Origin: Candidatus Woesearchaeota archaeon
GTDB taxonomy: Archaea > Nanobdellota > Nanobdellia > Pacearchaeales > GW2011-AR1
Direction: 5' to 3'
NCBI GenBank assembly: GCA_964561665.1
Contig: CAZLQA010000001.1
Span: 1 to 40,290, forward strand
DNA length: 40,290 bases
The notes beneath the pieces are model-generated. The model was not told the origin of the DNA. It made no database searches and saw nothing but the letters and a program-made list of their open reading frames with translations. Every line of letters starts with the position of its first letter. Within the stretch, counting starts at the first letter, position 1. Shown in pieces: positions 1,571 through 40,063 of this stretch. The translations under genes and the position numbers were made by a program.

Positions 1571-1699
1571 GCGTATGAAATAAAAAATGTCTTGCTCGTT
1601 TTGTTTGTTTGCATTAAGTTAAACAATTAAAATTAAAAGTTGGCGATTAAATTTTTATTAAGTTACAGGATTTTTGTTAATTTTTAATTAAACCTCTAT

Positions 1700-1760
1700 C
1701 AAGGCAAGCGCAAATTGCAAGCGAGCCATTGGGCAAGCAGTTATCTTGTTAATAAACGCA
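1700..1760. repeat. Possible degenerate fragment of the dispersed repeat family
   Basis: caaggcaagcgcaaattgcaagcgagccatt resembles the ..aagcgaacgcagtgagccat core. The following ggcaagcagttatcttgttaa resembles the left-end aagcagtttctgtttaa. The match is weak and by eye. Confidence 0.3.
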
Positions 1761-3331: not shown

Positions 3332-6181
3332 CTACTTTACCACTAAAATCTCCCCTTTTTTGTCTTTTATCTGAAAGTCAGTTTTGTTTTTAAATCTTTC
3401 CTTGTCAGTTGTAACATCTTCGGAAATTATCTTGAATTTTTTCGAATTTGTCCTTTCTTTTATAAATTCTTCCTGTTTTTCCAGCATGTTTTTTAACCCA
3501 TTGTCAGTCGATATAATCAACTCTATCTTGTCCTTCTTGTGCAGCCCGAGTTTTTTTCTGAATTCCTGCACCTGCCTCAAAAGCTCGCGGGCATATCCCT
3601 CAGATTCAAGTTCAGGCGTTTGTGTTGTATCAAGTTCAATAATCATTCCACCCTCATTTTTATTTAATTTTAGCTCAATCTTTTTTACATTTAATTGCGA
3701 TTTTATTATCTCTTCTTCCTCTTTTTTTAGTTTATAATCTCCGCCTATAACAGTTGCTTTCGCCAAAGGCCACTTCAAGCCAACTTCCTTTTTTTCCCTC
3801 TCTCTTAAGCCTGCAGAGACTACATTCCTGATAACTTCCATTTTTTTCAAAAGTTTTCTGTCGGTATGTTTATCTTCAAAATCAGGAAAGCTTTCCAAAT
3901 GAACTGATTTTGTTTTTCCATTAAGAGTCTGGTAAATTTTTTCCGCGGTAAACGGAAGAATAGGTGCAACGGACTTTGAAAAGATTTCCAAAACATACCT
4001 CAAAGTTTCACGGGACAATTTTTCATCTTCAAATCTTTCCCTTCCAGTCCTTATGTACCATGTAGACAAATCATCTGCAAATTTTCTTATTTCCTCGCAG
4101 GATTTTATTGTGTTGTAATCTTTAAGGCAGGAACTAATTTCGCATCCGAACTCATTCAGTCTCGACAGCATCCACTTGTCCGTCAAATTTCTGCTTAATG
4201 GCTTTTTGGTTTTCTCCTTTTTTCCGATAGTTTCGTAAAACCTTAGCGAGTTATACAAAATCAAAATAATCTTTTTGTAAACTTCCCCCACCCCCTTGTC
4301 CGAAAAATTAAGGTCTTCTGAGTTCATCACCGAGCCCGACATGAGATAAAATCTCAGGGCATCCGCCCCGTATTTGTCAACAAGTATCATAGGATCTGTA
4401 AAATTATTCTTGCTTTTGCTCATTTTTTGCCCGTCTTCCGCAAGGACGGTTCCCGTTGTAACAACATTTTCGAAAGGAATGTCATCAAACAAAATTGCCG
4501 ACAAAACCATCATGTAGTAAAACCACGTCCTTACCTGTGCTATGTATTCCACGACAAAGTCTGCGGGAAAGTTTTTTTTGAATAGGCTCTCGCTTTCAAA
4601 AGGATAATGAAACTGCGCAAAAGTCATTGCTCCCGATTCAAACCAGCAATCCAGAACTTCCGAAACCCTCTTGAATTTTTTCCCGTCTTTCTCAAGAATG
4701 ATTTTATCAAGATAATCCTTGTGCAGGTCTATTTTACCCTTAAGATTTTTCGAGTATTTTTTTAGCTCTTCCACGCTCCCTATAATTATTTTCTCTCCGT
4801 CTTCGGAAGTCCACACGGGCATTGCGCTTGCCCAATATCTGTTTCGCGAAATGTTCCAGTCCGGCGCGGTTTCAATCGTGTATTTCACGCGCCCTTCCTT
4901 GAGGAAAGTAGGATACCATTTTATCTTTTCGTTCAGTTTCAAAAGTTTCGGCTTTATCTTTTGTATATCCACAAACCACGCGGGTATCGCCCTATAAATC
5001 AGCTTTGTGTCACAACGATAGCAAAATGGATATTCGTGCTCCGTATTTTTTACCAAAACAACTTTATTTTGCTTCCTTAGGAATTCTATAATATCCCTGT
5101 TTGAATCATGAACAAATTTTCCCTTAAAGTCCTTGGCTTCAGGAGTGAATCTTCCTTTTTCATCAACAGGCTGCACAAGGGGAATCCTGTAATTCTTGCA
5201 GACATTGTAGTCGTCTTCGCCAAAGGCAGGGGCAATGTGGACAATTCCCGTTCCCTCATCCGAATTTACAAAATTTCCGAGCAGAAACCTGAATGCATTT
5301 TCGGTATTTTTGAAGTAAGGAAACAAAGGCTCGTATTTTTTTCCTTCAAGTTTTCTTCCTTTTATTTTTTCTACAATCTCATACTCTTTTCTGTCCCTGA
5401 AAAAATTGTCAAGAACTTCCCTTGCCATGAGATAAACCTCCTTGCTTGACTTGTCTTTTACATAAATGTAGTCCAAATCAGGGTTCACTGCAAGGGCAAG
5501 ATTTGAAGGGAGAGTCCAAGGGGTTGTTGTCCACGCCAGGGCATAAGCATCCTCCTCTTTTAGCTTGAATTTGACAACGATGGAATTTTCCTTTATCATT
5601 CTGTACGAATTGTCCATTGCAATTTCCGCCTTCGCCAGAGGGGTGGAGCATCTCGGGCAGTACATCAAAACTTTCTCACCCTCGTAGATATATCCCTTTT
5701 CCCACAGCTTTTTGAATGCCCACCACACGGATTCAATGTAATCGTTGTCCATAGTCCTGTAAGATTCCTTCATGTCAACCCACCTCCCTATCCTGTCTAT
5801 AACATTTTCCCACGAGCCTGCATACTCCATGACGCAGTGCCTGCAGTAGTCATTGAATTTTTTCACGCCTATTTTTTCTATCTCGTCCTTAGAGTTTATT
5901 TTTAGCCCTTTTTCAGCGATGTTCTCTATGGGAAGTCCGTGGCAGTCCCACCCCCATATTCTTCTTACATATTTTCCGTTCATCGTCCAGAATCTCCCGA
6001 AGACATCCTTTGTGACGGAGCCGAGAATGTGCCCGTAATGCGGAAGTCCCGTCGCGAAGGGAGGGCCGTCATAAAAAATGTAAGGTTTCCCTTTTTTTGT
6101 TTTTTTAAGGGATTTTTCAAAAGTCCTGTCTTTTTTCCAGAATTTTAATATCTCTTTCTCCTCTTCGTTGACATCAGCCAT
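3332..6181 (-). CDS. ileS: Isoleucyl-tRNA synthetase
   Basis: 949 aa with HIGH region (PPFATGLPHYGHIL), KMSKS (KMSKSKNN) and an editing-domain-type TTTPWTLPSN motif. Confidence 0.95.
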   Translation of the reverse strand: MADVNEEEKEILKFWKKDRTFEKSLKKTKKGKPYIFYDGPPFATGLPHYGHILGSVTKDVFGRFWTMNGKYVRRIWGWDCHGLPIENIAEKGLKINSKDEIEKIGVKKFNDYCRHCVMEYAGSWENVIDRIGRWVDMKESYRTMDNDYIESVWWAFKKLWEKGYIYEGEKVLMYCPRCSTPLAKAEIAMDNSYRMIKENSIVVKFKLKEEDAYALAWTTTPWTLPSNLALAVNPDLDYIYVKDKSSKEVYLMAREVLDNFFRDRKEYEIVEKIKGRKLEGKKYEPLFPYFKNTENAFRFLLGNFVNSDEGTGIVHIAPAFGEDDYNVCKNYRIPLVQPVDEKGRFTPEAKDFKGKFVHDSNRDIIEFLRKQNKVVLVKNTEHEYPFCYRCDTKLIYRAIPAWFVDIQKIKPKLLKLNEKIKWYPTFLKEGRVKYTIETAPDWNISRNRYWASAMPVWTSEDGEKIIIGSVEELKKYSKNLKGKIDLHKDYLDKIILEKDGKKFKRVSEVLDCWFESGAMTFAQFHYPFESESLFKKNFPADFVVEYIAQVRTWFYYMMVLSAILFDDIPFENVVTTGTVLAEDGQKMSKSKNNFTDPMILVDKYGADALRFYLMSGSVMNSEDLNFSDKGVGEVYKKIILILYNSLRFYETIGKKEKTKKPLSRNLTDKWMLSRLNEFGCEISSCLKDYNTIKSCEEIRKFADDLSTWYIRTGRERFEDEKLSRETLRYVLEIFSKSVAPILPFTAEKIYQTLNGKTKSVHLESFPDFEDKHTDRKLLKKMEVIRNVVSAGLREREKKEVGLKWPLAKATVIGGDYKLKKEEEEIIKSQLNVKKIELKLNKNEGGMIIELDTTQTPELESEGYARELLRQVQEFRKKLGLHKKDKIELIISTDNGLKNMLEKQEEFIKERTNSKKFKIISEDVTTDKERFKNKTDFQIKDKKGEILVVK

Positions 6182-6230: not shown

Positions 6231-6385
6231 GAGTCGACCTTGCTTGGAATTAATAGTTTAAATTTGTCCTCGCAAAGTCGCTCGGCTCATAATTTATGAA
6301 AAAATTAACAAAAAACCTGTTTTATGCTAACATTATTATCAATAAGCGAACGCAGTGAGCCTTTTGTATGACAAGCCTTGAAATC
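6231..6385 (+). repeat. Dispersed mosaic repeat, copy A
   Basis: It shares the exact 21-mer ggaattaatagtttaaatttg (6246-6266 = 14966-14986) and the exact 20-mer ataagcgaacgcagtgagcc (6342-6361 = 15119-15138) with copy B. The tail ttttgtatgacaag matches copy C. Confidence 0.8.
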
Positions 6386-6426
6386 AGAATTTATTCTCAA
6401 ATTTTCATCCAAAAACTTAAAAACCC

Positions 6427-7316: not shown

Positions 7317-7430
7317 TTTTTGTATTAATCATCTATTTCAAGTGATATTATCTGCAGTTTTTACATTAGAAATTTACATCAATATACGAACGACGAAGGA
7401 GTGAGCCATTTTGTATAATAAGTCAAAGCA
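7317..7430 (+). repeat. Dispersed mosaic repeat, copy C
   Basis: tttttgtattaatca..aagtgata.tatc.gc.gttttt matches copy D (9638-9683). The core aatatacgaacgacgaaggagtgagccat (7381-7409) is 28/29 identical to the reverse complement of 21944-21972 (copy F). Confidence 0.75.
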
Positions 7431-7580
7431 TTTCGGAAGTTTTTACACAAAACCATGAAAAGGGATAAGTATAAAAACTTTTGATGTTTGTTTTTTAATA
7501 AGAGGTGTGGTGTGTATGGCAAAAAAAAAGAAAGCAAAAAAGAAGAAATAACTATATTTTGAAACAAACTCTTTTTTATC

Positions 7581-9571: not shown

Positions 9572-9637
9572 AACAACTTTACTTTAGCAAGTAGATTCTA
9601 TCTGGAAATCAGTCTGTTAATCAAAGGGTAACTTTAA

Positions 9638-9760
9638 TTTTTGTATTAATCAATTCCTTAAGTGATAATATCCGCGGTTTTTGTATTAACAACTTACATC
9701 AATTAGCGAACGAGTGAAAAGTTATTCAGTGCTTGGCGAAGCGTATGCCTAATCGCTTTT
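9638..9760 (+). repeat. Dispersed mosaic repeat, copy D
   Basis: The left part matches copy C. The core is ..acatcaattagcgaacgagtgaaa. The right part agttattcagtgcttggcgaagcgtatgcctaatcgctt matches the 53-bp tandem unit at 16670-16785. Confidence 0.8.
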
Positions 9761-9815
9761 GAACAAAGCCCTACAGCACAATAAATTTTAAAACCCGTTG
9801 AGATTTTTCTAATTC

Positions 9816-10658
9816 ATGTACAACAAATTCCTTATAGTTGCTAGCAAGAAAGACCCTGCAGGCGTGAACATAACAACGCAATTGAGCCAGTTCAGGAAAA
9901 ATCCGGTTATTCCCGATGCAAAGAAAGACGGAAAAGAGTTTGATTTCTATCTTGTTGAGGAAGAGATAATTTATACGGAAAACCTTAACATGGAAAAAAT
10001 AGGCAAGTATGATTTCGTAATTTTTGCCTCCAAGCACAGCTCTTCCGGCGAAGAAAAGAGAAAATCTCTTACAATTCATTCTCCCGGAAATTTCAGAAAC
10101 GCGCAGTTCGGGGGAGAAAAGGGAAAAGTTTGCAAAACCTCGGCAATGTTCCACAAACAGCTCTTTGAAAAACTGAATGAAACCGCAAAGAAGCATGATT
10201 TGAGAAATTATGACATAACCCTTGAAGTGACTCATCACGGCCCCTTGATTGACAAGCCGTGCCTGTTCATTGAAATAGGCCCCACAGAAACCGAATGGAA
10301 AAACAGAAGGGTGGGCTTTATTATGGCAGAGACAATTTACGAAACCATTTTTGGATTCAAGGAAAATCCATACAACGAAGTTGCGATAGCCATTGGAGGC
10401 CCGCATTACTGCCCAAACTTTAATAAAATTCAGGAAAATTCAAACCTTGCAATTTCGCACATCATTCCCCAGTATAATTTTCCGCTTACAGAGGAAATGG
10501 TTAAGGAAGCCGTGGAAAAAACTGAAGAGGAAATCGATTTGGCTGTTTTGGACTGGAAAGGACTCGGCAATTCGGAGCAGAGGAATGAAATTCTAAAAAT
10601 TCTAGACAGGTTATATATCAGGTATGAAAAGACGAGTGATGTCGGAAAGTCTAATTAA
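9816..10658 (+). CDS. dtdA: D-aminoacyl-tRNA deacylase, archaeal type (DTD2/DtdA)
   Basis: The IVASKKDPAGVNI, FASKHSS, EVTHHGP and IGGPHYCPNF motifs are characteristic of the archaeal tRNA_deacylase family. Confidence 0.85.
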   Translation: MYNKFLIVASKKDPAGVNITTQLSQFRKNPVIPDAKKDGKEFDFYLVEEEIIYTENLNMEKIGKYDFVIFASKHSSSGEEKRKSLTIHSPGNFRNAQFGGEKGKVCKTSAMFHKQLFEKLNETAKKHDLRNYDITLEVTHHGPLIDKPCLFIEIGPTETEWKNRRVGFIMAETIYETIFGFKENPYNEVAIAIGGPHYCPNFNKIQENSNLAISHIIPQYNFPLTEEMVKEAVEKTEEEIDLAVLDWKGLGNSEQRNEILKILDRLYIRYEKTSDVGKSN

Positions 10659-11331
10659 CAACTAACCCCCGCACAACCAACTCCTCAAAAAACAGCTTTT
10701 TTGAGTTTATCACCTTTGATTTATAGCCAAGTTTCTCGAAATTCACTTCTTTAGACAATGAGCTGGTTACAACAAATATTCTGCCGTTTTTGTTCAGGTA
10801 ATCCTTGGCATCTTTCAGGAATTTTATTGTTAATTCATTGCCTTTTTTTCCGCCTGTCGTGGCTATTTGCGAATCTTCTGGCTCTTTTTCATCCAAAGGC
10901 AGGTAAGGGGGATTAAAAATAATAATGTCAAATTTGCTTGGAAAAACTGCAATTCGCTCGCCTAAAGGCTCGCTAATTTGTCTCGCACTTTCGCGCTCGT
11001 TTTGATTTATTTGATAATCTCTCAACCTCATTAAGTTTTTTGTTATATTGGTTTGATGTGGGCAAAATCTAAAATTTTTAAACAAATCAGATTTTATACA
11101 ATTAAATCCCTTATCTTTGCAACATTTAACTGCATTTTCATTAATATCCGTTCCAAAAATATTCTCTTTTTTTACCCCAATGTTGAAGGCTGTCTGCAAC
11201 AAAATTCCCGAGCCAGAGCCGATTTCAAGAAGGTTAAGATTTGGATTTTTCTTCAGGATTTTAGGAATTTCTTTTTTAAGGGTTTCACTTAAAAGATAAG
11301 AATCTTCTGCAGGTTGATAGATTGAAATCAT
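10651..11331 (-). CDS. HemK/Mtq2-like SAM-dependent (glutamine-N5) methyltransferase carrying a ~45-aa internal insertion
   Basis: It has YQPAEDSYLLSE, GSGSGIL (motif I) and IIFNPPYLP (NPPY). I prefer the start at MISIYQP.. (11331), because the tracked N-terminus MNTVSLFKIKEIKQK lies in repeat copy H. Confidence 0.8.
   Translation of the reverse strand: MISIYQPAEDSYLLSETLKKEIPKILKKNPNLNLLEIGSGSGILLQTAFNIGVKKENIFGTDINENAVKCCKDKGFNCIKSDLFKNFRFCPHQTNITKNLMRLRDYQINQNERESARQISEPLGERIAVFPSKFDIIIFNPPYLPLDEKEPEDSQIATTGGKKGNELTIKFLKDAKDYLNKNGRIFVVTSSLSKEVNFEKLGYKSKVINSKKLFFEELVVRGLVVN
10936..11070 (+). repeat. Repeat-family-like sequence inserted in frame inside the Mtq2/HemK-like gene
   Basis: It encodes RFCPHQTNITKNLMRLRDYQINQNERESARQISEPLGERIAVFPS, between SDLFKNF and KFDIIIFNPPY. 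It shares ggctcgctaa (10966-10975 = 25277-25286) and ttttgatttatttgataatc / ctttgattcttgatgttaacc with the Trm5 insert. Confidence 0.5.
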
Positions 11332-11357
11332 TTTTTGTTTAATTTCTTTTATTTTAA

Positions 11358-11495
11358 AAAGGCTCACCGTGTTCACATATTGATTTAACTATTAATATAA
11401 AACTAACTTATTTTATGACTAATGCAGGATTTGTGCTATCATCTCATTAATTGCGAGAATTTATTCGAGCACATTTAAAGTAAGCCGAAGGCGAA
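11358..11495 (-). repeat. Dispersed mosaic repeat, copy H (inverted orientation, right end truncated at the cstA stop)
   Basis: aaggctcaccgtgttcacatatt.. matches copy F (atggctcactcc..gttcgtatatt). ..cattaattgcgag and aagccgaaggcgaaccatttta match F (gaagccgagataaggcgaaccaatttta). Confidence 0.7.
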
Positions 11496-14854: not shown

Positions 14855-14910
14855 TTTTAAACAAACCACTCATCTTTTAAAAATGTTGATATTTTTAATG
14901 ACTTTTGTTT

Positions 14911-15185
14911 AAGAAGCAGTTTCTGTTTAAAGTGGTTTGCCTTATCTCTTCTCCCGACCCCGCTCGGAATTAATAGTTTAAATTTGCCATTCGCAAAGTC
15001 GCTCTACTCGCACCCGCACTCATTATTAACTAAAAATTGCCTCGTGCAAATGCTCGGCTCACAATTGATGAAAAATTAACTAATAGAAAAACAACTTTTA
15101 TATTAACAACCTTTACCGATAAGCGAACGCAGTGAGCCATCTCATTTAATAATTTAATAAAAATAAGTAAGTTCTAAACAAAGCC
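14911..15185 (+). repeat. Dispersed mosaic repeat, copy B (longest copy, contains an internal module duplication)
   Basis: It carries all the modules: left end aagcagtttctgtttaaagtggtttgcc, ggaattaatagtttaaatttg, tcgcaaagtcgctc / tcgtgcaaatgctcggctcacaattgatgaaaaattaac, ttttatattaacaa..ataagcgaacgcagtgagcc, and right end aaaataagtaagttctaaacaaagcc. Confidence 0.85.
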
Positions 15186-15230
15186 TATTCTAATGATTTT
15201 AAAATCATTAAAGCATCTCCCTTTCTCATT

Positions 15231-15332
15231 TCAAATCAATGTCCTTATTATTCCATATACCAATAATCCCAACGCAACAAAGCCTATAACCCACGCAATA
15301 ATTTGTAGCAGTTTTAAGGTGTGTTTTTTCAT
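15231..15332 (-). CDS. 33-aa single-TM ORF translationally coupled to serS (MKKHTLKLLQIIAWVIGFVALGLLVYGIIRTLI)
   Basis: My own translation. Its ATG overlaps the serS TGA as ATGA (15329-15332). Confidence 0.35.
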   Translation of the reverse strand: MKKHTLKLLQIIAWVIGFVALGLLVYGIIRTLI

Positions 15333-16615: not shown

Positions 16616-16639
16616 TCTTCAGCATAGAGAATCTTATAT

Positions 16640-16790
16640 TTAAATTTAATCAAGCCTCTCGCTGTCGTTCGCTTATTGGTGAAGTTCTAGTTATTCAGTG
16701 TCTGCCGAAGCGTATGGCTAATCGCTTATTGGTAAAATCCTAGTTATTCAGTGTCTGCCGAAGCGTATGGCTAATCGCTTAATGATATAA
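16640..16790. repeat. Dispersed mosaic repeat, copy E, including a 53-bp tandem array (2.2 units, 16670-16785)
   Basis: The unit cgcttattggt[g/a]aa[g/a]t[t/c]ctagttattcagtgtctgccgaagcgtatggctaat starts at 16670, 16723 and 16776. It is preceded by cctctcgctgtcgttcgcttatt, an inverted version of the ..gcgaacgacg..gagtgagcc core. Confidence 0.8.
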
Positions 16791-16811
16791 TTATCAACGC
16801 AAAAGATACAT

Positions 16812-20492: not shown

Positions 20493-20686
20493 AATTAAAA
20501 AGGAGGGCTGGTTATTGTGGAAAAACTTTCAGAACAATTCTGCGATTTCCCCGGGGGCAATTGGAAATCGCCGTTCAGTGCTTTGAATGGACTGGAAAGA
20601 AAGTTTGTGACTTTGTCGAGGTGCGTAAAAAAGTCACCGTTCAACAATTTGAGGAAGTTGAAAAGAAACCAGCGGGTTTCTTTTAA
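20489..20686 (+). CDS. Uncertain 65-aa ORF filling the rfcS-rfcL spacer
   Basis: Its ATG overlaps the rfcS TGA (ATGA), and its stop TAA abuts the rfcL ATG. A second frame is also open: GTG about 20516 to TGA 20688-20690, 57 aa, with aaggaggg upstream. The coding frame is therefore ambiguous. Confidence 0.3.
   Translation: MKLKRRAGYCGKTFRTILRFPRGQLEIAVQCFEWTGKKVCDFVEVRKKVTVQQFEEVEKKPAGFF
20542..20571 (+). other. Perfect 9-bp-stem hairpin inside the rfcS-rfcL spacer
   Basis: gcgatttcc - ccgggggcaatt - ggaaatcgc. Confidence 0.6.
20663..20684 (+). terminator. Terminator/attenuator-like hairpin plus T-run immediately upstream of the rfcL ATG
   Basis: aagaaacc-agcg-ggtttctt (8-bp stem, 4-nt loop) is followed by tt and then aaATG of rfcL. 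Confidence 0.4.
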
Positions 20687-21886
20687 ATGAACTGGACTGA
20701 AAAATACCGCCCTAAAATTTTTTCAGAAATTGTGGGGCAGGAAGAGGCAGTTGCAAAAGTTAAAAAATTCGTAGAGGATTTTCACTCCGGAAAATCCGCG
20801 AAAAGGAGGAAAAAAGCCCTTTTTCTTCATGGCTCACCCGGCACGGGAAAGACAACCATTGCATTTGCAGCTGCAAACGAGACAAACTCCGAGATTTTTG
20901 AATTGAACGCGAGCGATTTGAGAAATAAAATTAACCTGCAGGAAGTTTTAAGGCCCGCAGTTGAACAGCAGTCTCTCCTTAAAAAGAAAAAGATAATTTT
21001 AATCGATGAAGTTGACGGAATATCCGGTTTTTATGATAAGGGAGGTATTCTCGAGATTTTATCCCTTATAGAAGTTACTTCTTATCCAGTAATCATAACT
21101 GCAAACGACCCATGGGTTAAGAAGCTAAGCACTTTAAGAAAAAAAACAGAGATGATTAAGCTAAAGGAAATAAACTACAAAGTCATAAAGGATGTTCTCA
21201 TAGAAATTTTAAGAAAAGAAAATAAATTCCTTAACAATAATATCCTTACAGAAATCTCAATAAAGTCCCGCGGTGACTTGAGGGCTGCAATAAACGACTT
21301 GCAAAGGGAAGCCTCCCTGAAAAGCCTCGAAACCTCTCCCGTTTTGGATGAAAGGAACAAGGAAGGAGACATATTCAACGCGCTAAGAAGTGTATTCAAA
21401 GGAAAGCCAAGCAACGAAATTCTCGGGATTTTTGATTCGCTAAACATGGGAATTGACGAAGTGATGCTGTGGATTGAAAAGAACATTCCCTTGGAATATC
21501 ATGGAAAGGAATTGGAAAGGGCTTTCGATTTGCTGAGCAAGGCGGACGTTTTCAAGGGAAGAATATACAAGCAGCAATACTGGAGATTTTTGGTTTATGA
21601 AAACATATTTCTTAGTTATGGAATATCTTCCTCAAAAAATCCCTCGCGGGTTCCCCAGGGATTCACAAGCTACCAAAAACCCGACAGGATTCTTAAAATA
21701 TGGATAAATAATCAAAAAATCATCAGAAAAAAAGCAATCGCAGAAAAATACGCAAGATATGTTCACATAGGGAAAAAAAGAGCCGAGAGGGAATTCCCCA
21801 TGGTTGTGAAAATCCTGAAAAAGCCGGAAGTCCAGAAAGAAATAAAACTCAATGAAGAAGAGGTTGAGTATTTGAGGGAGATTTGA
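20687..21886 (+). CDS. rfcL: Replication factor C large subunit
   Basis: It has WTEKYRPK, Walker A GSPGTGKTT and Walker B ILIDEVDG. The 399-aa length and position directly after rfcS also fit. Confidence 0.9.
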   Translation: MNWTEKYRPKIFSEIVGQEEAVAKVKKFVEDFHSGKSAKRRKKALFLHGSPGTGKTTIAFAAANETNSEIFELNASDLRNKINLQEVLRPAVEQQSLLKKKKIILIDEVDGISGFYDKGGILEILSLIEVTSYPVIITANDPWVKKLSTLRKKTEMIKLKEINYKVIKDVLIEILRKENKFLNNNILTEISIKSRGDLRAAINDLQREASLKSLETSPVLDERNKEGDIFNALRSVFKGKPSNEILGIFDSLNMGIDEVMLWIEKNIPLEYHGKELERAFDLLSKADVFKGRIYKQQYWRFLVYENIFLSYGISSSKNPSRVPQGFTSYQKPDRILKIWINNQKIIRKKAIAEKYARYVHIGKKRAEREFPMVVKILKKPEVQKEIKLNEEEVEYLREI

Positions 21887-21897
21887 GAACAGCAATA

Positions 21898-22055
21898 TGG
21901 CTTTGTTAAAAAAATTCCAAATTGATTTGGTTTGTTAAAAAAAATGGCTCACTCCTCCGTCGTTCGTATATTAATAACAATTTTAATCCAAACCTAGTTA
22001 TTTTTTCATCAATTGTGAAGCCGAGATAAGGCGAACCAATTTTAAACAGAAACTC
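21898..22055 (-). repeat. Dispersed mosaic repeat, copy F (inverted orientation, both ends present)
   Basis: ggctttgttaaaaaaa.. is the inverted right end. atggctcactcctccgtcgttcgtatatt is the inverted core (28/29 to copy C). tagttattttttcatcaattgtgaagccgag is the inverse of ctcggctcacaattgatgaaaaattaacta. taaggcgaaccaattttaaacagaaac is the inverted left end of copy B. Confidence 0.8.
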
Positions 22056-22111
22056 TTATCAGACAAAATTACAATAATAAACTATTAAAACATCTCTCTC
22101 TATTCCCTATT

Positions 22112-22681
22112 ATGTCTTATGATATTCAGCTCGGAAGAAACAAGTCGGACAAGAAGCTGTTCGGGGAAAGGGGGTTTGTTTTCCTTGGAAAAAGCTATGT
22201 AAAAATGGGGCAGTATGATTCCCTGAGCAACAGGATTTTAATGGACATTTCAAGAAGCCACGTGGTTCTCGTCGCTGGAAAAAGAGGCTCCGGAAAATCA
22301 TACACCCTCGGCGTGATAGCGGAGGAGCTCTCAAATCTGGAAAAGGAAACAAGCCAAAACATCGCCTCTTTGTTTTTTGACACCATGGGAATTTATTGGA
22401 CGATGAAGTTCCAGAATGAAAAAGACAAGGACTTGCTTTACGAGTGGGGGCTGAAGCCAAAAACGCTGCCTGTAAAAATTTTCGTGCCTTTCGGGCATTA
22501 CCAGTCCTACGTTGAAAAAAGAATTCCCGTTGACGAGCCTTTTGCCCTAGATGTCACTGAATTAGAGGCGGAAGATTGGATTATAACTTTCGGATTGGAC
22601 ATGATTCATCCCGTATCTGTCTTGATTGAAAGAATAACAAGCCGCTTGAAAAAAGAGGGCAGATTTACAATAAGAGATTGA
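22112..22681 (+). CDS. HerA/DUF87-type P-loop ATPase, N-terminal segment (ends at an in-frame TGA)
   Basis: Walker A is present (VAGKRGSGKSYTLG). The ORF ends ..GRFTIRD-TGA at 22679-22681. Confidence 0.75.
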   Translation: MSYDIQLGRNKSDKKLFGERGFVFLGKSYVKMGQYDSLSNRILMDISRSHVVLVAGKRGSGKSYTLGVIAEELSNLEKETSQNIASLFFDTMGIYWTMKFQNEKDKDLLYEWGLKPKTLPVKIFVPFGHYQSYVEKRIPVDEPFALDVTELEAEDWIITFGLDMIHPVSVLIERITSRLKKEGRFTIRD

Positions 22682-24217: not shown

Positions 24218-24508
24218 ATGAGATTAGAAGATATTAAACTGCCTGAAACGGCTACCGAAAAAGAACTTCTTGGGTTAGGAGCAATAAAAAAAGGAGATAT
24301 TTTCTTTTATGAAGACGGAATTAATGGGGTAACTGCAGGATGGAGAAGAGGAAGTGATGGCACTTATTACCTTTCCTATAAAGGAGTAGTTTCACAACCC
24401 AATCTAGAAAGTTCCGGAAGTCCAACAGGAAAGGAGATATATCCTCTAAGAAAACCTCCTGAATTCAAAGAAGACCAAAGGGAGCCAACAAAAAAACGCC
24501 CATTTTAA
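24218..24508 (+). CDS. Small soluble protein, paralog 1 of a tandem triplet (96 aa)
   Basis: IKLPETATEKELLGLGAIKKGDIFFYEDGINGVTAGWRR... There is a 1-nt gap to the previous gene. Confidence 0.55.
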   Translation: MRLEDIKLPETATEKELLGLGAIKKGDIFFYEDGINGVTAGWRRGSDGTYYLSYKGVVSQPNLESSGSPTGKEIYPLRKPPEFKEDQREPTKKRPF

Positions 24509-24509
24509 A

Positions 24510-24722
24510 ATGAACCTTGAAAAATCCTCAGAAGAAAGCATGGAAAAAGTTCCCAGAACAGCAACGGCAAGAGACCTTTTAAAATTAGGAGCAAGAATAA
24601 TAAATGTCTTAGGTGATAGAGCATATCAGGATTCTAAAACATACGCGATAGTTGTTTTTAAAAAAATTAAAGGTGGGGTTTACGAAAGGATTTTTGTCGG
24701 AACTCCAAGCCATCATGACTAA
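24510..24722 (+). CDS. Small soluble protein, paralog 2 of the tandem triplet (70 aa)
   Basis: KVPRTATARDLLKLGARIINVLGDRAYQDSKTYAIVVFKK... There is a 1-nt gap to paralog 1. Confidence 0.55.
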   Translation: MNLEKSSEESMEKVPRTATARDLLKLGARIINVLGDRAYQDSKTYAIVVFKKIKGGVYERIFVGTPSHHD

Positions 24723-24743
24723 TCATAAAATATTAAATCAAAA

Positions 24744-24995
24744 ATGAGCTCAAAAAGTTTGGAAAAAACAAGCAAATCTTCCAGAGTGGTTAAATTGCCT
24801 CAAATATCCACAGAAGAACAACTTCTTGGATTAGGCGCTGTAAGAGACGGTTACGGAATGAAATATGAAAATCCTGCTTTAGGTGTGATTGTATATTGGA
24901 GAAGATTATTAAATGAAAGAAATGAAAGTTTAGAAGCCACAAACTTATATGTATTTTCTCATCAAGAACCTATGAAAAAAAGCACTCTCCACTAA
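24744..24995 (+). CDS. Small soluble protein, paralog 3 of the tandem triplet (83 aa)
   Basis: VKLPQISTEEQLLGLGAVRDGYGMKYENPALGVIVYWRR... DNA-level similarity to paralog 1 is visible (caacttcttggattaggcgct vs gaacttcttgggttaggagca). Confidence 0.55.
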   Translation: MSSKSLEKTSKSSRVVKLPQISTEEQLLGLGAVRDGYGMKYENPALGVIVYWRRLLNERNESLEATNLYVFSHQEPMKKSTLH

Positions 24996-25889
24996 CTATA
25001 AAATCTTCAAGTCAACCCTTACCCTGAATTTGTAAGGCGCAATTTCACCCGCTTTTTTGAAATTAAGGATTTTAATTTTCTTTTTTGATTTTTTTGCTTC
25101 ATCAAGAATTCTTTCCCTAACAGAATCAATCTCGTCATCCTTTGCAAAATCATAGTAAAAAATCCTTGTCCCTTTTTTGCTTAAGAAAAAAGCCTCTTTA
25201 AGAAAACTTTCCTTCAACTGGGGACGGGGCATAACAATCACGTCGTATTTTTTTGGGATTTCCTGCAAGTTTAATCGGCTCGCTAACACTCGCCTATTTC
25301 TTTGATTCTTGATGTTAACCATCTGATTTGTTTTTTTATCAACATAATTCTTACCAATCTGCGAATGTGAATAAGCGGCTAATCTCTTAACACCTCCCTG
25401 AATCACCTGAACCTTATCCTCAACTTTATTCAGCTTAGAATTAAGCTTCGCATACCTGCCCGCTTCTCTATTAATCTCGATGCTTGTAACTTTCCCCGCA
25501 GGCGAATTTCTTGCAATGACAATTCCATAAGGATTTATACCCGAAAACATCACAAGCACGTTCTCGTTTCTTTTTATTTTTCCGGAGATTTCCGCCCTCT
25601 CGCTGCTTAACCTAGGGGAGAAGTATGTTGAATCCACATTAAACCTGAAAATGCATCCGTTTTCCCTGTAAAGAGCTTCTTTTGTCTTAACACCAAGAAT
25701 CCACCTCGTTTTCTGCTTTCTCAAACGTCCTTTAAATCGCGAGGTTTTCTCAAGAACTGTCCTTACAGACTTATACTGCCTAAGGATTTTTTCGGCTATT
25801 TTTTTCTTTTCATTTGCCTTTGATTCTCTTGGAAATTTTAAAATTGCAATATTTCCCATAATGTCAATTCCCGATGGTTTTTTGCCCAT
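24996..25889 (-). CDS. Trm5/Taw2-like (Met-10+) tRNA methyltransferase carrying a ~43-aa internal insertion
   Basis: It has IDIMGNIAILKF, FRFNVDSTYFSPRLSSER, VLVMFSGINPYGI (SAM motif I region) and DVIVMPRP (the NLP-type motif IV position). Confidence 0.8.
   Translation of the reverse strand: MGKKPSGIDIMGNIAILKFPRESKANEKKKIAEKILRQYKSVRTVLEKTSRFKGRLRKQKTRWILGVKTKEALYRENGCIFRFNVDSTYFSPRLSSERAEISGKIKRNENVLVMFSGINPYGIVIARNSPAGKVTSIEINREAGRYAKLNSKLNKVEDKVQVIQGGVKRLAAYSHSQIGKNYVDKKTNQMVNIKNQRNRRVLASRLNLQEIPKKYDVIVMPRPQLKESFLKEAFFLSKKGTRIFYYDFAKDDEIDSVRERILDEAKKSKKKIKILNFKKAGEIAPYKFRVRVDLKIL
25254..25382 (+). repeat. Repeat-family-like sequence inserted in frame inside the Trm5-like gene
   Basis: On the + strand, ..cggctcgctaacactcgcc..tttgattcttgatgttaacc..tgtttttttatcaacataattcttaccaatctgcgaatgtgaataagcgg aligns at roughly 70 percent by eye with copies A and B (ggctca..atttatgaaaaaattaac..tgttttatgctaacattattatcaataagcgaacgcagtgagcc). 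Confidence 0.55.
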
Positions 25890-25965: not shown

Positions 25966-26072
25966 TGGAATTATTGGCACAGAACAATCGCATTCATTCA
26001 CAATCAATATTGCTGCTAATTTAATGAAAAAATTATTTAATTTTTATGCAATCTGCGAGTGAAACGAGCTGC
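25966..26072 (+). repeat. Dispersed mosaic repeat, copy I (short, diverged)
   Basis: tggaattattgg..caatcgcattcattcacaatc..gctaatttaatgaaaaaattattt..ttttatgcaatctgcgagtgaaacgagc parallels ggaattaatag..tcgcaaag..ggctcataatttatgaaaaaattaac..ttttatgctaac..aagcgaacgcagtgagc. Confidence 0.55.
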
Positions 26073-26110
26073 ATTTCTTAACAGCAAAAAACAAGATAAA
26101 ACTTTATAAA

Positions 26111-32067: not shown

Positions 32068-32109
32068 GGGCTTTATTGGAAAATTAGTTAAAGTTTTTTC
32101 GCGAACCAT
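32068..32109. repeat. Possible short fragment of the repeat family upstream of the Nop2/Sun gene
   Basis: gggctttattggaaaattagttaaag resembles cgcttattggtaaaatcctagttattc (the 53-bp unit). cgcgaaccat resembles ggcgaaccat in copies F and H. The match is weak. Confidence 0.3.
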
Positions 32110-36423: not shown

Positions 36424-38724
36424 TTACCCTAGATAGCTATTTCCTGTTGGAAGTGCCGCCTTTGTGGATTTAAGGAAATTATCCTCTATCTTCTTGTAAA
36501 CTTCTATTGTCGGCTTGCTTACACTTGGCTTTATCTTTTTCAAGGCTTCCTCAAAATGCTTTTTCTTTACCTGCTTTGATTCCATGTCTTCTCTCAAAGA
36601 AAGCATTGCAGCCTCTCTTGTCAAAGCCTCCAAATCAGCACCAGTGTATCCCTGTGTTTTTTTGGCTAAATCACTCAGGCTAACATCTTTTGTAATAGGC
36701 ATTTTTTTCGTGTGAATCTTCAAAACCTGCAGTCTTCCCTCTTCTTCAGGCGCATTGACTAAAAGTATCTTATCAAATCTTCCCGGCCTCAAAAGCGCAG
36801 GGTCAAGCATATCAGGCCTGTTTGTGGCTCCTATAATCATGACATTTTTCAAGTCTTCCAATCCATCCATCTCTGCCAAAAGCTGATTCAAAACTCTTTC
36901 AGTGACTCTTGTTCCTGCGTCCGCCCCTCTCCTTCCTGCAAGAGCGTCAATTTCATCAAAGAAAACTATGCACGGCGCAACTTGTCTGGCTCTCTCAAAA
37001 ATCTTTCTCATGCCCTCTTCTGATTTTCCGACCCACATGCTCAGAAGACTTGGGCCCTTCACCTGTATGAAATTCGCCCCAGACTCTTTTGCAGCAGCCT
37101 TTGCGAGAAGCGTTTTTCCCGTTCCCGGAGGTCCATAAAGAAGGACCCCTTTTGGAGGTTTTATTCCCATTCTCTCAAAACTCTCTGCATGATTCATAGG
37201 CCATTCTATCACTTCCCTAAGCTCCTGCTTTACACTGTCAATTCCTCCGACATCACCCCAATCCACGTTAGGCGTTTCAACAAGAACCTCGCGCATTGCC
37301 GAGGGACGGACATTTCTCAGGGCATCCGTGAAATCACTTTTTTTTACAATAAGCTTCTCAAGAATCTCAATAGGAATCTGCTCTTCCTTGTCAAGATTCA
37401 TCTCGGGAAGATATTTTCTAAGGACATTCATTGCAGCTTCCTTTGTCAAAGCCTCCAAGTCCGCCCCAACGAATCCGTGGGTGACGTCCGCAATCTCTTT
37501 CAGGTTGACATCTTTTGCAAGAGGCATTCCCCTCGTGTGGATTTTAAGAATGGAAATTCTCCCCTCCTTGTCGGGAACATTGATTGCAATTTCCCTGTCA
37601 AATCTCCCGGGTCTTCTCAACGCAGGGTCAAGCGAATTTACCCTGTTTGTGGCTCCGATAACAATTACCTTTCCTCTTGACTTCATCCCGTCCATCATCG
37701 TCAGAATCTGCGAAACAACACGCCTTTCAACTTCGCCCATGGTTTCCTCCCTCTTCGGAGCGATTGCGTCAATTTCGTCTATGAAAACTATTGTCGGCGC
37801 CGTTTTCTCCGCCTCGTCAAAAATGTCCCTTATTTTTTTCTCGGATTCCCCGTAATATTTTGACATGATTTCAGGCCCGTTAAGAAGTATGAAATTCGCG
37901 TCGGATTCATTTGCAACCGCTTTCGCCAAAAGCGTTTTTCCAGTTCCAGGAGGGCCATAAAGAAGAACTCCTTTTGGCGCCTTTATTCCAAGCTTGTCAA
38001 AAATCTCCGGATGCTTCAGGGGAATCTCAACCATTTCCCTTATTTTTTTTATTTCTTCCCTCAATCCTCCGATGTCTTCATAGTTAATCTCGGGAATTTT
38101 CTCGTCGGTTATTTCCACTGCCTTTGGATTCAGAGTAACCTCCGTGTTCTCGGTTATTATCACGGGCTGGTTTGGCGAGGAGCTTACGACAAGGAATTTT
38201 ATCTGCGCAATCGCGCCTCCAAGATTTCCTATGCCCATGCCAAAAAAGTCCCCGAATATGTCATTCAGTTCCCCAAACTCCTCGGACATCAATTCCTTTC
38301 TTCTCTGGACGCCTCCGAGAACAACAACGTCTCCTTTTGTTACGGCTCTTCCAAGCAATCCTCTTTTAAGATTGTCGGGGTCTCCCTGCACCATAACATT
38401 TTTCTGCGCGGGGGCTATCATGATTTTTTTGGCTTCCTTCATTTCCGTCTTTGAAATTGAAACAACATCTCCTATTCCCGCCTTCGCATTCCTTCTTATA
38501 ATTCCGTCAATCCTTATTATTCCCTCTCCAACATCCGCAGGATACGCCCTGTCCGCAATCGCGACGGTTTCCCTTCCGCCTTTTATCATAATCACGTCCC
38601 CCCTTCTTATTCCGATGTCCTTCATAACCTCGTAATCCATTCTTGCAATTCCTTTATGGACATCGTCCTGCAACGCCTCCATTACCTTAAGCTGTACTTT
38701 TTTTTCCGCCATTTTAGTAATCAC
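36424..38724 (-). CDS. cdc48: CDC48/VCP-like AAA+ ATPase (two AAA domains)
   Basis: It has an N-domain (..[24 protein letters not shown]), two Walker A motifs ([13 protein letters not shown] twice), two Walker B motifs (IVFIDEIDA / IVFFDEIDA) and SRH regions. Confidence 0.95.
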
Positions 38725-39801: not shown

Positions 39802-39868
39802 GGAACTTTTTGTCCATTATAATTTAAAAACATTTGTATCTTTTTCAGGATATAACAGGATTTGTTTT

Positions 39869-40063
39869 AACAAGCAGTTTCTTTTTGAAATGTCTCGCCT
39901 CTCGGCTTCGCAATTAATGAAAGAATTAACTAACTAAAAACCAACTTGTCTTGTACTAACATTTAAAGGAAAGGTTAAGCGAAGGAAACCTTGGTGTCCT
40001 CGCTATGCGAACGAAGTGAGCATTTTTCAACAATCAAAAATAAGTATTTTCTAAACAGGACTG
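39869..40063 (+). repeat. Dispersed mosaic repeat, copy G (both ends present)
   Basis: The left end is aacaagcagtttctttttgaaatg. It also carries ctcggcttcgcaattaatgaaagaattaactaac, the core tatgcgaacgaagtgagca, and the right end aaaaataagtattttctaaacaggactg. The right end reverse-complemented (cagtcctgtttagaaaat) resembles the left end (cagtttctttttgaaatg). Confidence 0.8.

Follow-up and report, generated by a model that had tools for sequence, protein, structure and literature searches.

A mosaic family of non-coding inverted-repeat elements in the long intergenic spacers of a woesearchaeal contig

A 40,290-nucleotide stretch of archaeal DNA (the window; contig CAZLQA010000001.1 of assembly GCA_964561665.1, Candidatus Woesearchaeota archaeon) carries a single family of non-coding repeats in eight intergenic copies, lettered A, B, C, D, E, F, G and I, which together make up 1445 nt, or 3.6% of its length. 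The focal copy, E, lies at 14902-15185. The elements are bounded by terminal inverted repeats (TIRs) and are absent from orthologous sites in syntenic relatives, and we consider it probable that they are old, now mostly fossil MITEs (miniature transposable elements with inverted repeats), non-autonomous and derived from an IS6-like element, with a partner that is encoded elsewhere or extinct. The window has a GC content of ~38% and encodes the small and large subunits of RFC, a family-B DNA polymerase, Cdc48, TrmB, DtdA and several aminoacyl-tRNA synthetases, and an Rfam scan found two tRNAs in it and nothing else, either at gathering thresholds or at E<=1. Its proteins were recovered on scaffolds of the Rifle groundwater metagenome (PRJNA268031), and the closest named homologues of its seryl-tRNA synthetase (SerRS) belong to Candidatus Pacearchaeota and Nanoarchaeota. 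Comparison loci and assemblies are labeled with L-numbers throughout, and a further copy, J, lies just outside the window.

The copies form one family by several measures. First, a sensitive blastn comparison of the window with itself paired G with B in inverted orientation (79% over 97 nt, E=6e-16), E with A (75% over 120 nt, E=6e-13) and C with B (E=9e-11), with further intergenic pairs down to 1e-5; other pairs were G-E, I-G, F-C and D-A. Second, an nhmmer profile, built from the full-length copies and then iterated, matched A, B, C, D, G and I and, in two segments, E, with E-values from 8e-10 to 5e-29, and had zero matches both in 1.07 Mb of unrelated viral contigs and in ~124 kb from eight related genomes. 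Lastly, the core pattern CGAACG-N(1-7)-AGTGAGCCWTYT occurs four times against 0.00 expected from shuffles. A first-pass annotation, made by a model from the letters of the window, had aligned these repeats by eye, and the alignments proved significant in both searches. The focal copy it had placed at 14911-15185 is real, with a profile extent of 14902-15185, as are those at 6231-6385, 7317-7430, 9638-9760, 11358-11495, 16640-16790, 21898-22055 and 39869-40063. The exact 20- and 21-mers that it had noted between the copies at 6231 and 14911 (the 21-mer is GGAATTAATAGTTTAAATTTG) and the inverted 28/29 match between those at 7317 and 21898 are present, while shuffled controls share at most 11 exact bases. 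Its weaker copies fared less well, since that from 25966 on (H, ~26008-26075) is marginal at E=0.57, that at ~1700-1760 (1679-1756) is marginal at E=0.19, and 32068-32109 has no profile support as a family fragment. The claim that the long spacers owe their length to copies largely stood: among the eight non-tRNA spacers exceeding 200 nt, six contain clear copies and two contain weak fragments only.

Only the low GC content of the spacers speaks for the alternative that the repeats are chance resemblances in AT-rich DNA or an assembly artefact, and we give this alternative virtually no credence. E-values reach 1e-29, 1.2 Mb of negative controls contained no match, and over copies A-G or A-F two other assemblies (L001 and L002) show 7 mismatches to the window and are free of gaps. 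Because the copies read through without a gap in three assemblies that come from separate runs, the repeats are not an assembly artefact, and the controls have already refuted this alternative as a whole.

The full-length copies aligned for the consensus were G, I and J from this organism together with L099, L126, L122, L119 and L118. The resulting consensus is 178 nt long (copies range from 105 to 360 nt) and reads GGCTTTGTTTAGAAAATCC...CTTGACTTATTAAACAAAA(T)GGCTCACT(1-7 nt)CGTTCGC(T/A)TATTG(G/A)T...GTTAAT.CAAAAC...TTAGTTAATTTTTTCATCAATTGTGAGCCGA...GGCGAACCAATTTTAAACAGAAATTACTTGTTAAACAAAGCC. Its ends form an 11-nt TIR, GGCTTTGTTTA / TAAACAAAGCC, the family formula being GGCT(T/C)TGTTTAGAA and that of the ancestral unit GGCT(T/C)TGTTTA(G/A)AA; this TIR is present in J, L126, L118, L119 and E, many copies are worn at one end, and the L099 copy ends in CTGTTTAAAAT/ATTTTAAACAG. 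Subterminal repeats (ACTTATTAAACAAA and TTTTAAACAG) accompany it; the motif TTAAACA(A/G) recurs there, with one inverted occurrence on the left side and two direct ones on the right, and the TIR and subterminal repeats were found in full-length copies of at least four genomes. The best-conserved segment in all genomes is a 24-nt core block, GGCTCACT-CGTTCGC-TATTGG. Many copies can be written in a common layout, profile 1-84 + n x (53/54-nt unit) + profile 60-178, in which the internal unit is optional, occurs in 0-3 tandem copies, begins with TCGCTTATTGG and finishes with GC(G/T)TAA.

These features support the description of a mosaic, MITE-like, non-coding interspersed family with inverted ends and copies in both orientations that the first-pass annotation had given, with two corrections. 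Inverted ends do exist, but the 'cagtttctgtttaaa' that it took for an end is a subterminal repeat of the same motif, and the true termini are those given above. The family is likewise a mosaic, but the module 'agttattcagtg...cgaagcgtatggctaatcgctt' is not an independent piece; the layout of left module, repeated unit and right module explains both this module, which is the internal tandem unit, and the anatomy of copy F. Mosaicism also stems from internal duplication, as in E, from the truncation of A, B, C and D, from an alternative right module common to B and C, and from extra sub-modules, of which the 43 nt of copy I are an example. No conserved open reading frame (ORF) was found in the family, any frame being broken by indels of 53 nt and 1-7 nt. 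We rejected a short ORF in the core, starting from ATGGCTCAC, as copy A lacks the ATG and the indels are not multiples of three.

Copy J, which is full-length and lies ~0.8 kb past the right end of the window, captures variation of the internal unit between strains. It holds one 54-nt unit in scaffold_331 (L255:8472-8707) and two in scaffold_125 (L254:8418-8707), which come from different samples, and the two strains are 99.7-99.99% identical over the flanking 20 kb. The number of units is thus changing now, presumably by slippage or unequal recombination.

We compared the window with family-free relatives, which were chosen as the genomic contexts of SerRS homologues 76-81% identical to that of the window (L128, L130, L132, L133/L134/L135, L136/L137, L256 and L257; the ~124 kb from eight related genomes mentioned above). 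At site B, the 80-aa gene and the methylase are separated in L132 by 1 nt (stop TAA, C, ATG), and in the window by 309 nt that hold B. At site E, the SerRS stop and the ATG of a 90-aa gene are 2 nt apart in the marine relative L134, and 459 nt apart in the window, where the spacer holds a 33-aa ORF and E. At site G, the genes for RFC-large and HerA are 38 nt apart in L134 and 225 nt apart in the window, where the spacer holds G and a AACTATTAAAAC box is conserved beyond the element. Since orthologous sites in syntenic, family-free relatives hold only 1, 2 and 38 nt, the copies are insertions relative to those relatives, and the family is lineage-specific; no core block occurs in the ~124 kb of relatives, compared with 21 in 138 kb of family-bearing DNA.

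The elements are small and non-coding, carry TIRs and subterminal repeats, are dispersed between genes in both orientations and are missing from orthologous sites, and for these reasons we favor the MITE reading. The spreading mechanism itself, the IS6-like partner, the 8-bp duplication and the causes of mosaicism are what we infer. The family would have expanded in one sub-lineage of Pacearchaeota/Woesearchaeota-type DPANN archaea from an ancestral unit of ~178 bp made up of a TIR, subterminal repeats, the core block and a second TIR, with the subterminal repeats as likely transposase-binding sites. A DDE transposase acting in trans would have cut at the TIRs and placed the element in AT-rich DNA, in the gap that separates a stop codon from the promoter that follows, with a target-site duplication (TSD) of ~8 bp as the probable outcome. 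The mosaics may then have arisen in three ways, namely by expansion and contraction of the internal unit bracketed by TCGCTTATTGG through slippage or unequal recombination, by truncations and internal duplications, and by adjacent or nested copies and recombination between copies.

The transposase would most plausibly be IS6-like, judging from the GG tips, the G at position 7 and the (c)TGTT of the TIR, and would be encoded elsewhere or lost. The ends of IS6/IS26 elements have the consensus GGTTCTGTTGCAAA, with GG tips, G7 and cTGTt, and the elements produce 8-bp TSDs; archaeal IS6 members keep GG and G7 and lack G10, and IS6-derived MITEs exist (PMC6807381, PMC7986276). In the present family, GG, G7 and TGTT are found in nearly all intact ends, G10 is absent, and the C5 of the cTGTt hallmark is found in L099 and L124:949. 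Among 13 copies with both ends, matches between the flanking 8-mers averaged 5.31, compared with 4.78 for mismatched pairs (permutation p=0.028). The best duplications flank L126 (8/8, TATTCACT on both sides) and E (7/8), and the other 11 copies score 3-6/8. The flanks of E are of the type TATT(T/C)TAATGA and directly abut both ends, and scores like its 7/8 are reached in 3% of mismatched flank pairs. The candidate TSD of E reads, on the plus strand, TATTTTTAATGA at 14890-14901 on the left and TATTCTAATGA at 15186-15196 on the right.

Several observations weigh against this reading. The copies are old, those within the window's genome being only 56-77% identical to each other, and no transposition event was caught in the act. 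Nothing points to a recent burst, and the two sampled strains (>99.7% identical) show no presence/absence polymorphism of copies, so that the recent mobility proposed in the first-pass annotation is not supported. The closest pairs join copies of different genomes, one example being J, which has 84-89% identity with copies in L124, L119 and L118; the subfamilies therefore predate the split of the genomes or have moved between them. TSDs are visible in two of the 13 copies and their test is marginally significant; filled sites B and E carry 50-170 nt of extra non-family DNA, and so are not clean single insertions; the likeness to IS6 TIRs covers ~9-10 of 14 positions and was recognized post hoc; and the core block is better conserved than the termini, which is unusual if selection acted only on end-binding by a transposase. 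A partner is also missing. The remark of the first-pass annotation that the window contains no transposase extends to ~190 kb of family-bearing DNA, in which we found no autonomous partner with the same TIRs, and neither viral contigs nor phage records contained a partner element or pointed to a viral or phage origin, an idea that we rejected. No transposase Pfam domain is present in ~60 kb of the annotated source genome, no multi-copy ORF in ~150 kb of family-bearing DNA, and the 16 ORFs of IS6 transposase size (195-265 aa) at family-bearing loci are housekeeping genes or lack a Pfam match, none being DDE. Since no transposase was found, the IS6 link is a lead and not a proof.

Some of the same evidence can be turned toward a family that recombination, gene conversion or the duplication of intergenic segments has spread in place of transposition, with the inverted ends as incidental palindromy. 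The missing transposase and weak TSDs would fit such a process, as would the mosaic and composite copies, the extra DNA at filled sites and an internal unit that clearly changes by slippage or recombination. We nevertheless judge it distinctly improbable: the copies occupy unlinked sites in all gene contexts, on many contigs and in several genomes; full-length copies have sharp termini at the same TIR; L126 has a perfect 8-bp flanking duplication; and subfamilies are common to genomes whose genes show no nucleotide-level similarity.

The placement of the copies bears on whether they serve the host. By gene context, 10 copies are tandem, five convergent and five divergent, both orientations are represented, and no strong copy lies inside a gene. 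In the tandem contexts seven copies run along transcription and three against it, and an early bias in orientation relative to genes (6/8), which we had considered, vanished with more copies. A strand-specific form of the promoter or terminator role that the first-pass annotation had offered finds no support in these counts. A broader proposal is that the elements are host-recruited, cis-acting repeats like REP/BIME, ERIC or BOX, in which the 24-nt core would bind a host chromatin or regulatory protein and the elements, by splitting ancestral operons, would serve as cassettes with an insulator, terminator or promoter function; such recruitment would be compatible with a MITE origin. In every genome compared the core is conserved best and the TIRs and the rest decay, old copies persist in a very compact genome, all three filled sites part gene pairs that lie 1-38 nt apart in relatives, TATA-like boxes stand just downstream of the elements, and in an rRNA operon family modules adjoin both the tRNA and the processing stems of the 23S. 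Yet close relatives with the same genes manage without the elements, orientation shows no bias with respect to transcription, truncation of the copies takes every possible form (F and D are without most modules), and TATA-like strings are expected at ~30% GC; taken together, we regard recruitment as unlikely.

A joint reading, which appears quite unlikely, would have the core as a co-opted host protein-binding site and the elements as portable boundaries of transcription units and, on occasion, new peptide loops (as in TYW2/Trm5, see below), or would have the elements mobilized by an unrecognized type of transposase. If co-option were true, the operons broken would be SerRS/90-aa gene, 80-aa gene/methylase and RFC-large/HerA, and the spacers of the rRNA operon would have been seeded with elements.

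The copies could instead encode small structured non-coding RNAs that form a family, or be RNA elements that regulate in cis. Their intergenic location, an inner inverted repeat (GGCTCAC...GTGAGCC) and the folding of the L099 copy at z=-2.8 would suit this explanation, which we nonetheless find very unlikely. RNAalifold predicted zero base pairs for 12 core sequences, folding z-scores lie between -1.8 and +2 for five of the six copies on both strands, and the left arm of the inner repeat is nearly invariant while the right arm drifts without compensation. The family has no Rfam match at gathering thresholds or at E<=1, and copies are cut off at arbitrary points. The family thus has no conserved RNA structure, and the conserved hairpin and small RNA suggested in the first-pass annotation are not borne out; the hairpin AAGCG-N10-CGCTT is merely part of the 53/54-nt unit and shows no covariation. 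A C/D-box or k-turn ('TGATGA...GTGA') was also rejected, as its GA dinucleotides are not conserved between copies.

Against this background, the individual copies can be read as variants of one plan. Copy E (14902-15185, minus strand), with nhmmer E-values of 5e-29 and 1e-7, is full-length but composite and runs through profile 1-146 (15185-15033), a duplicate of the 'tcgcaaagtcgctc' module of ~46-58 nt, and profile 115-174 (14975-14902). An internal duplication is indicated because E matches A twice, in two overlapping blastn hits. Its left-end TIR, GGCTTTGTTTAG, reads from 15185 on the minus strand, and its right end is degenerate (CTTAAACAAAAG) and stops at 14902. Beside it, directly after SerRS, lies a 33-aa hydrophobic ORF (MKKHTLKLLQIIAWVIGFVALGLLVYGIIRTLI; ~15221-15322, minus strand), which has 75% nucleotide identity in L132 and is absent from L134. 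Copy A (6246-6391, minus strand; profile 15-160, E=5e-27) lies between the methylase stop codon and the start of IleRS, and its outer TIRs are eroded. Copy B (7317-7456, minus strand; E=7.5e-17) joins a left half (profile 1-98, 7350-7454) to a module at 7317-7349 that is common to B and C only, and it is 79-80% identical to G and C by blastn. Copy C (9577-9770, minus strand; E=8e-10) comprises profile 51-173 (9577-9717) and one F-type unit (9720-9770) in the opposite relative orientation, which finishes in a TIR-like GAACAAAGCC; C and F are 83-90% identical by blastn. Copy D (11351-11482, plus strand; E=9e-14) is core only (profile 42-152) and extends over the GTG codon predicted to start the methyltransferase gene 10651-11376.

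Copy G (21899-22072, plus strand; E=7e-27) is near full-length (profile 1-172) with a degenerate right end, and lies between the RFC-large stop and the conserved promoter-proximal box of HerA, AACTATTAAAAC. Copy I (39856-40063, minus strand; E=4e-27) is full-length (profile 2-177) with the extra 43-nt sub-module at 39961-40003. Copy F (16640-16806, plus strand) has no TIRs and consists of a core fragment, CCTCTCGCTGTCGTTCGCTTATTGG, two tandem 53-nt units (16669-16721 and 16722-16774, 94% identical) and a partial third; multi-unit copies homologous to F occur in L117, L127, L123, L124, L119 and L118. We rejected a CRISPR array as an explanation of F, as its 53-nt units abut without spacers and are 94% identical over their whole length. 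In six of six relatives a conserved gene for a membrane protein of ~220 aa stands beside SerRS; in the window (16616-16811) it is missing, and the space from the Na/H exchanger to SerRS holds nothing but the TIR-less copy F. The loss of this gene and the presence of copy F in its place suggest a deletion associated with the element.

Three further segments are candidate remnants. Copy H (26008-26075, plus strand) is a strongly diverged right-half fragment, and it matches L123:9499-9585, which adjoins a family copy there, at E=6e-9 by blastn. The segment at 1679-1756 (minus strand) has a 28-nt inverted match to copy A (86%). A possible core-only, in-frame copy lies at 25273-25376 (plus strand), inside the TYW2/Trm5-like methyltransferase gene 24996-25889 (minus strand), with a score of 10.6 bits (E=0.005), whereas none of 3000 shuffles exceeds 6.3 bits. 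This segment coincides exactly with a 34-codon in-frame insert (34 aa) relative to the ortholog in marine L134, at a position that is a loop of ~4 residues in solved Trm5a/b structures. It is possible that the insert derives from the family in the manner of a Rickettsia palindromic element (RPE), but this is not established because other Pacearchaeota lineages have unrelated inserts of 35-40 aa at the same loop and their genomes are without the family. A TYW2 relative that is 94% identical (P0122) was set aside as evidence, being a short, apparently chimeric contig that is identical across the insert and adds nothing.

Copies extend well past the window: beside the eight in its 40 kb, others lie on the same scaffold, and other genomes hold over 25. 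When metagenomes were scanned with a stringent core pattern, 12 loci were found, and seven of them lie on large contigs of one metagenome (Ga0208375); these contigs are copy-dense and archaeal, since they encode RNase P RNA, L11, Rpb7 and eIF2-alpha and carry an rRNA operon. The window shares neither nucleotide similarity in genes nor synteny with the Ga0208375 loci, which are therefore unusable as empty sites. In a scan of a genome collection with the core pattern, the matches listed were mostly chance, and among them only L099, from a Woesearchaeota metagenome-assembled genome (MAG), is a true copy. Three matches in the Bacteroidota MAG KLAP56 (L011:393-411, L076:7103-7121 and L080:7316-7334) were rejected as an unrelated bacterial repeat, which has in common with the archaeal core block only the 18-mer ATGGCTCACTGCGTTCGC and shows no convincing similarity beyond this motif; the overlap is probably a coincidence surfaced by the pattern search.

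The rRNA operon on one of the family-bearing contigs (L124:1-5300, archaeal) holds family fragments in its 16S-23S spacer (949-991) and a family copy directly 3' of the 23S gene (4906-5262). The 43-nt sub-module of copy I recurs in it at 87-93%, a short way upstream of both the spacer tRNA and the processing stem of the 23S, and the operon's 23S match spans 3299 nt compared with a model of 2987 nt and may contain insertions. A second interspersed element, of ~130 nt, lies in the window at 20561-20690, immediately upstream of the RFC-large ATG, and has no Rfam match; the gap between RFC-small and RFC-large is 9 nt in the marine relative. It contains the hairpins GTGACTTT..AAAGTCAC and GAAACC-agcg-GGTTTC, the latter followed by TTTT. 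At 88-94% identity it also precedes S3Ae-like and Spt5-like genes in Ga0208375 contigs (L127:2637-2768 and L119:10953-11085), and partial tandem copies follow the 16S rRNA at L124:485-540 and 613-668.

Two sets of repeats in coding genes are unrelated to the family, namely the two AAA domains of Cdc48 (37052-37218 and 37874-38040) and three 61-nt repeats (24234-24850) that span small ORFs (24218-24995). HerA has an in-frame TGA (22679-22681, codon 190, where the relative has Ile), for which recoding was rejected: L001, from the same organism, has Leu, and has a scaffold gap (a run of N) a few codons downstream of codon 190. The TGA is most likely an assembly or strain difference.

DPANN archaea are usually seen as streamlined and poor in mobile elements, whereas here ~3.6% of 40 kb and most long spacers are element-derived, at ~200 copies per Mb, and sister genomes with the same gene order have none. 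As spacers in the window are element-derived and sister genomes lack the copies, spacer length can be a recent historical accident and need not reflect regulatory design. The family profile could serve as a lineage marker, as a flag for breakpoints in assembly or binning, and as a probe for the missing transposase; if the IS6-like link is true, IS6-type elements would extend to Pacearchaeota/Woesearchaeota.

Comparable repeats are known from several prokaryotes. BOX elements come nearest in architecture, IS6-type MITEs in ends and duplication, and Correia elements and RPEs in genomic ecology. BOX elements of Streptococcus pneumoniae follow a boxA-boxB(n)-boxC plan, with reported stable RNA structures and effects on neighboring genes. 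Likened by description and not by sequence, the present family resembles them in having a left module, from zero to several internal units of ~45-54 nt and a right module, with the outer modules partly complementary, and in being intergenic, dense, without a known transposase and variable in unit number between strains; the BOX host is bacterial, and it is for BOX that stable RNA and expression effects are reported. In Neisseria, Correia (NEMIS) elements carry IHF sites and TIRs of 26 bp, make a TA duplication and exist as many near-identical copies. With these and other high-density MITEs the family has in common a size of ~100-160 bp, TIRs, dense intergenic placement, often between stop and promoter, and full-length as well as internally deleted variants; it differs in its TIR of ~11-16 bp, a duplication that is probably of 8 bp, and highly diverged copies. 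RPEs are selfish repeats of ~100-150 bp with long palindromes, and the likeness lies in a reduced, symbiont-type genome and one candidate in-frame copy at a protein surface loop (TYW2/Trm5), while here the intragenic candidate is single and of moderate significance and there is no conserved hairpin. REPs are hairpins of 20-40 nt mobilized by RAYT, a TnpA of the IS200/IS605 type. The family resembles REP/BIME (REPIN-RAYT) systems as a mosaic of short motifs, intergenic and in both orientations, but lacks a conserved hairpin, has TIRs and is ~180 bp long, and ~150 kb of family-bearing DNA showed no RAYT-like gene, whether multi-copy or flanked.

Among archaea, the MITEs SM1-SM4 of Sulfolobus have identified partner insertion sequences and near-identical copies; the present elements are likewise archaeal, non-autonomous and intergenic, but are diverged and without a partner. 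MITEs derived from IS6/IS26 (including the archaeal ISH14, ISH17 and ISH29) resemble them in being short and non-coding, in the GG/G7/(c)TGTT TIR without G10, and in candidate flanking duplications of ~8 bp at the best-preserved copies. Given TIR matches at ~9-10 of 14 positions, no IS6-like transposase in ~190 kb and weak TSDs, membership is not established, and there is a further difference in that IS6 elements move via a cointegrate, so that a MITE would need a resolution step. According to a 2024 census (PMC11602168), 'a Woesearchaea genome' is among the archaea of highest MITE density, at 105 MITEs per Mb, and MITE-rich DPANN genomes are thus on record; the census gives no anatomy for the Woesearchaeal elements, which could be this family. 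We found no description of this family's anatomy. The family is ordinary selfish DNA of a known type and not a new system, its phenomenon is already on record at census level, and it provides an anatomically defined case behind the MITE-rich Woesearchaeota of that census.

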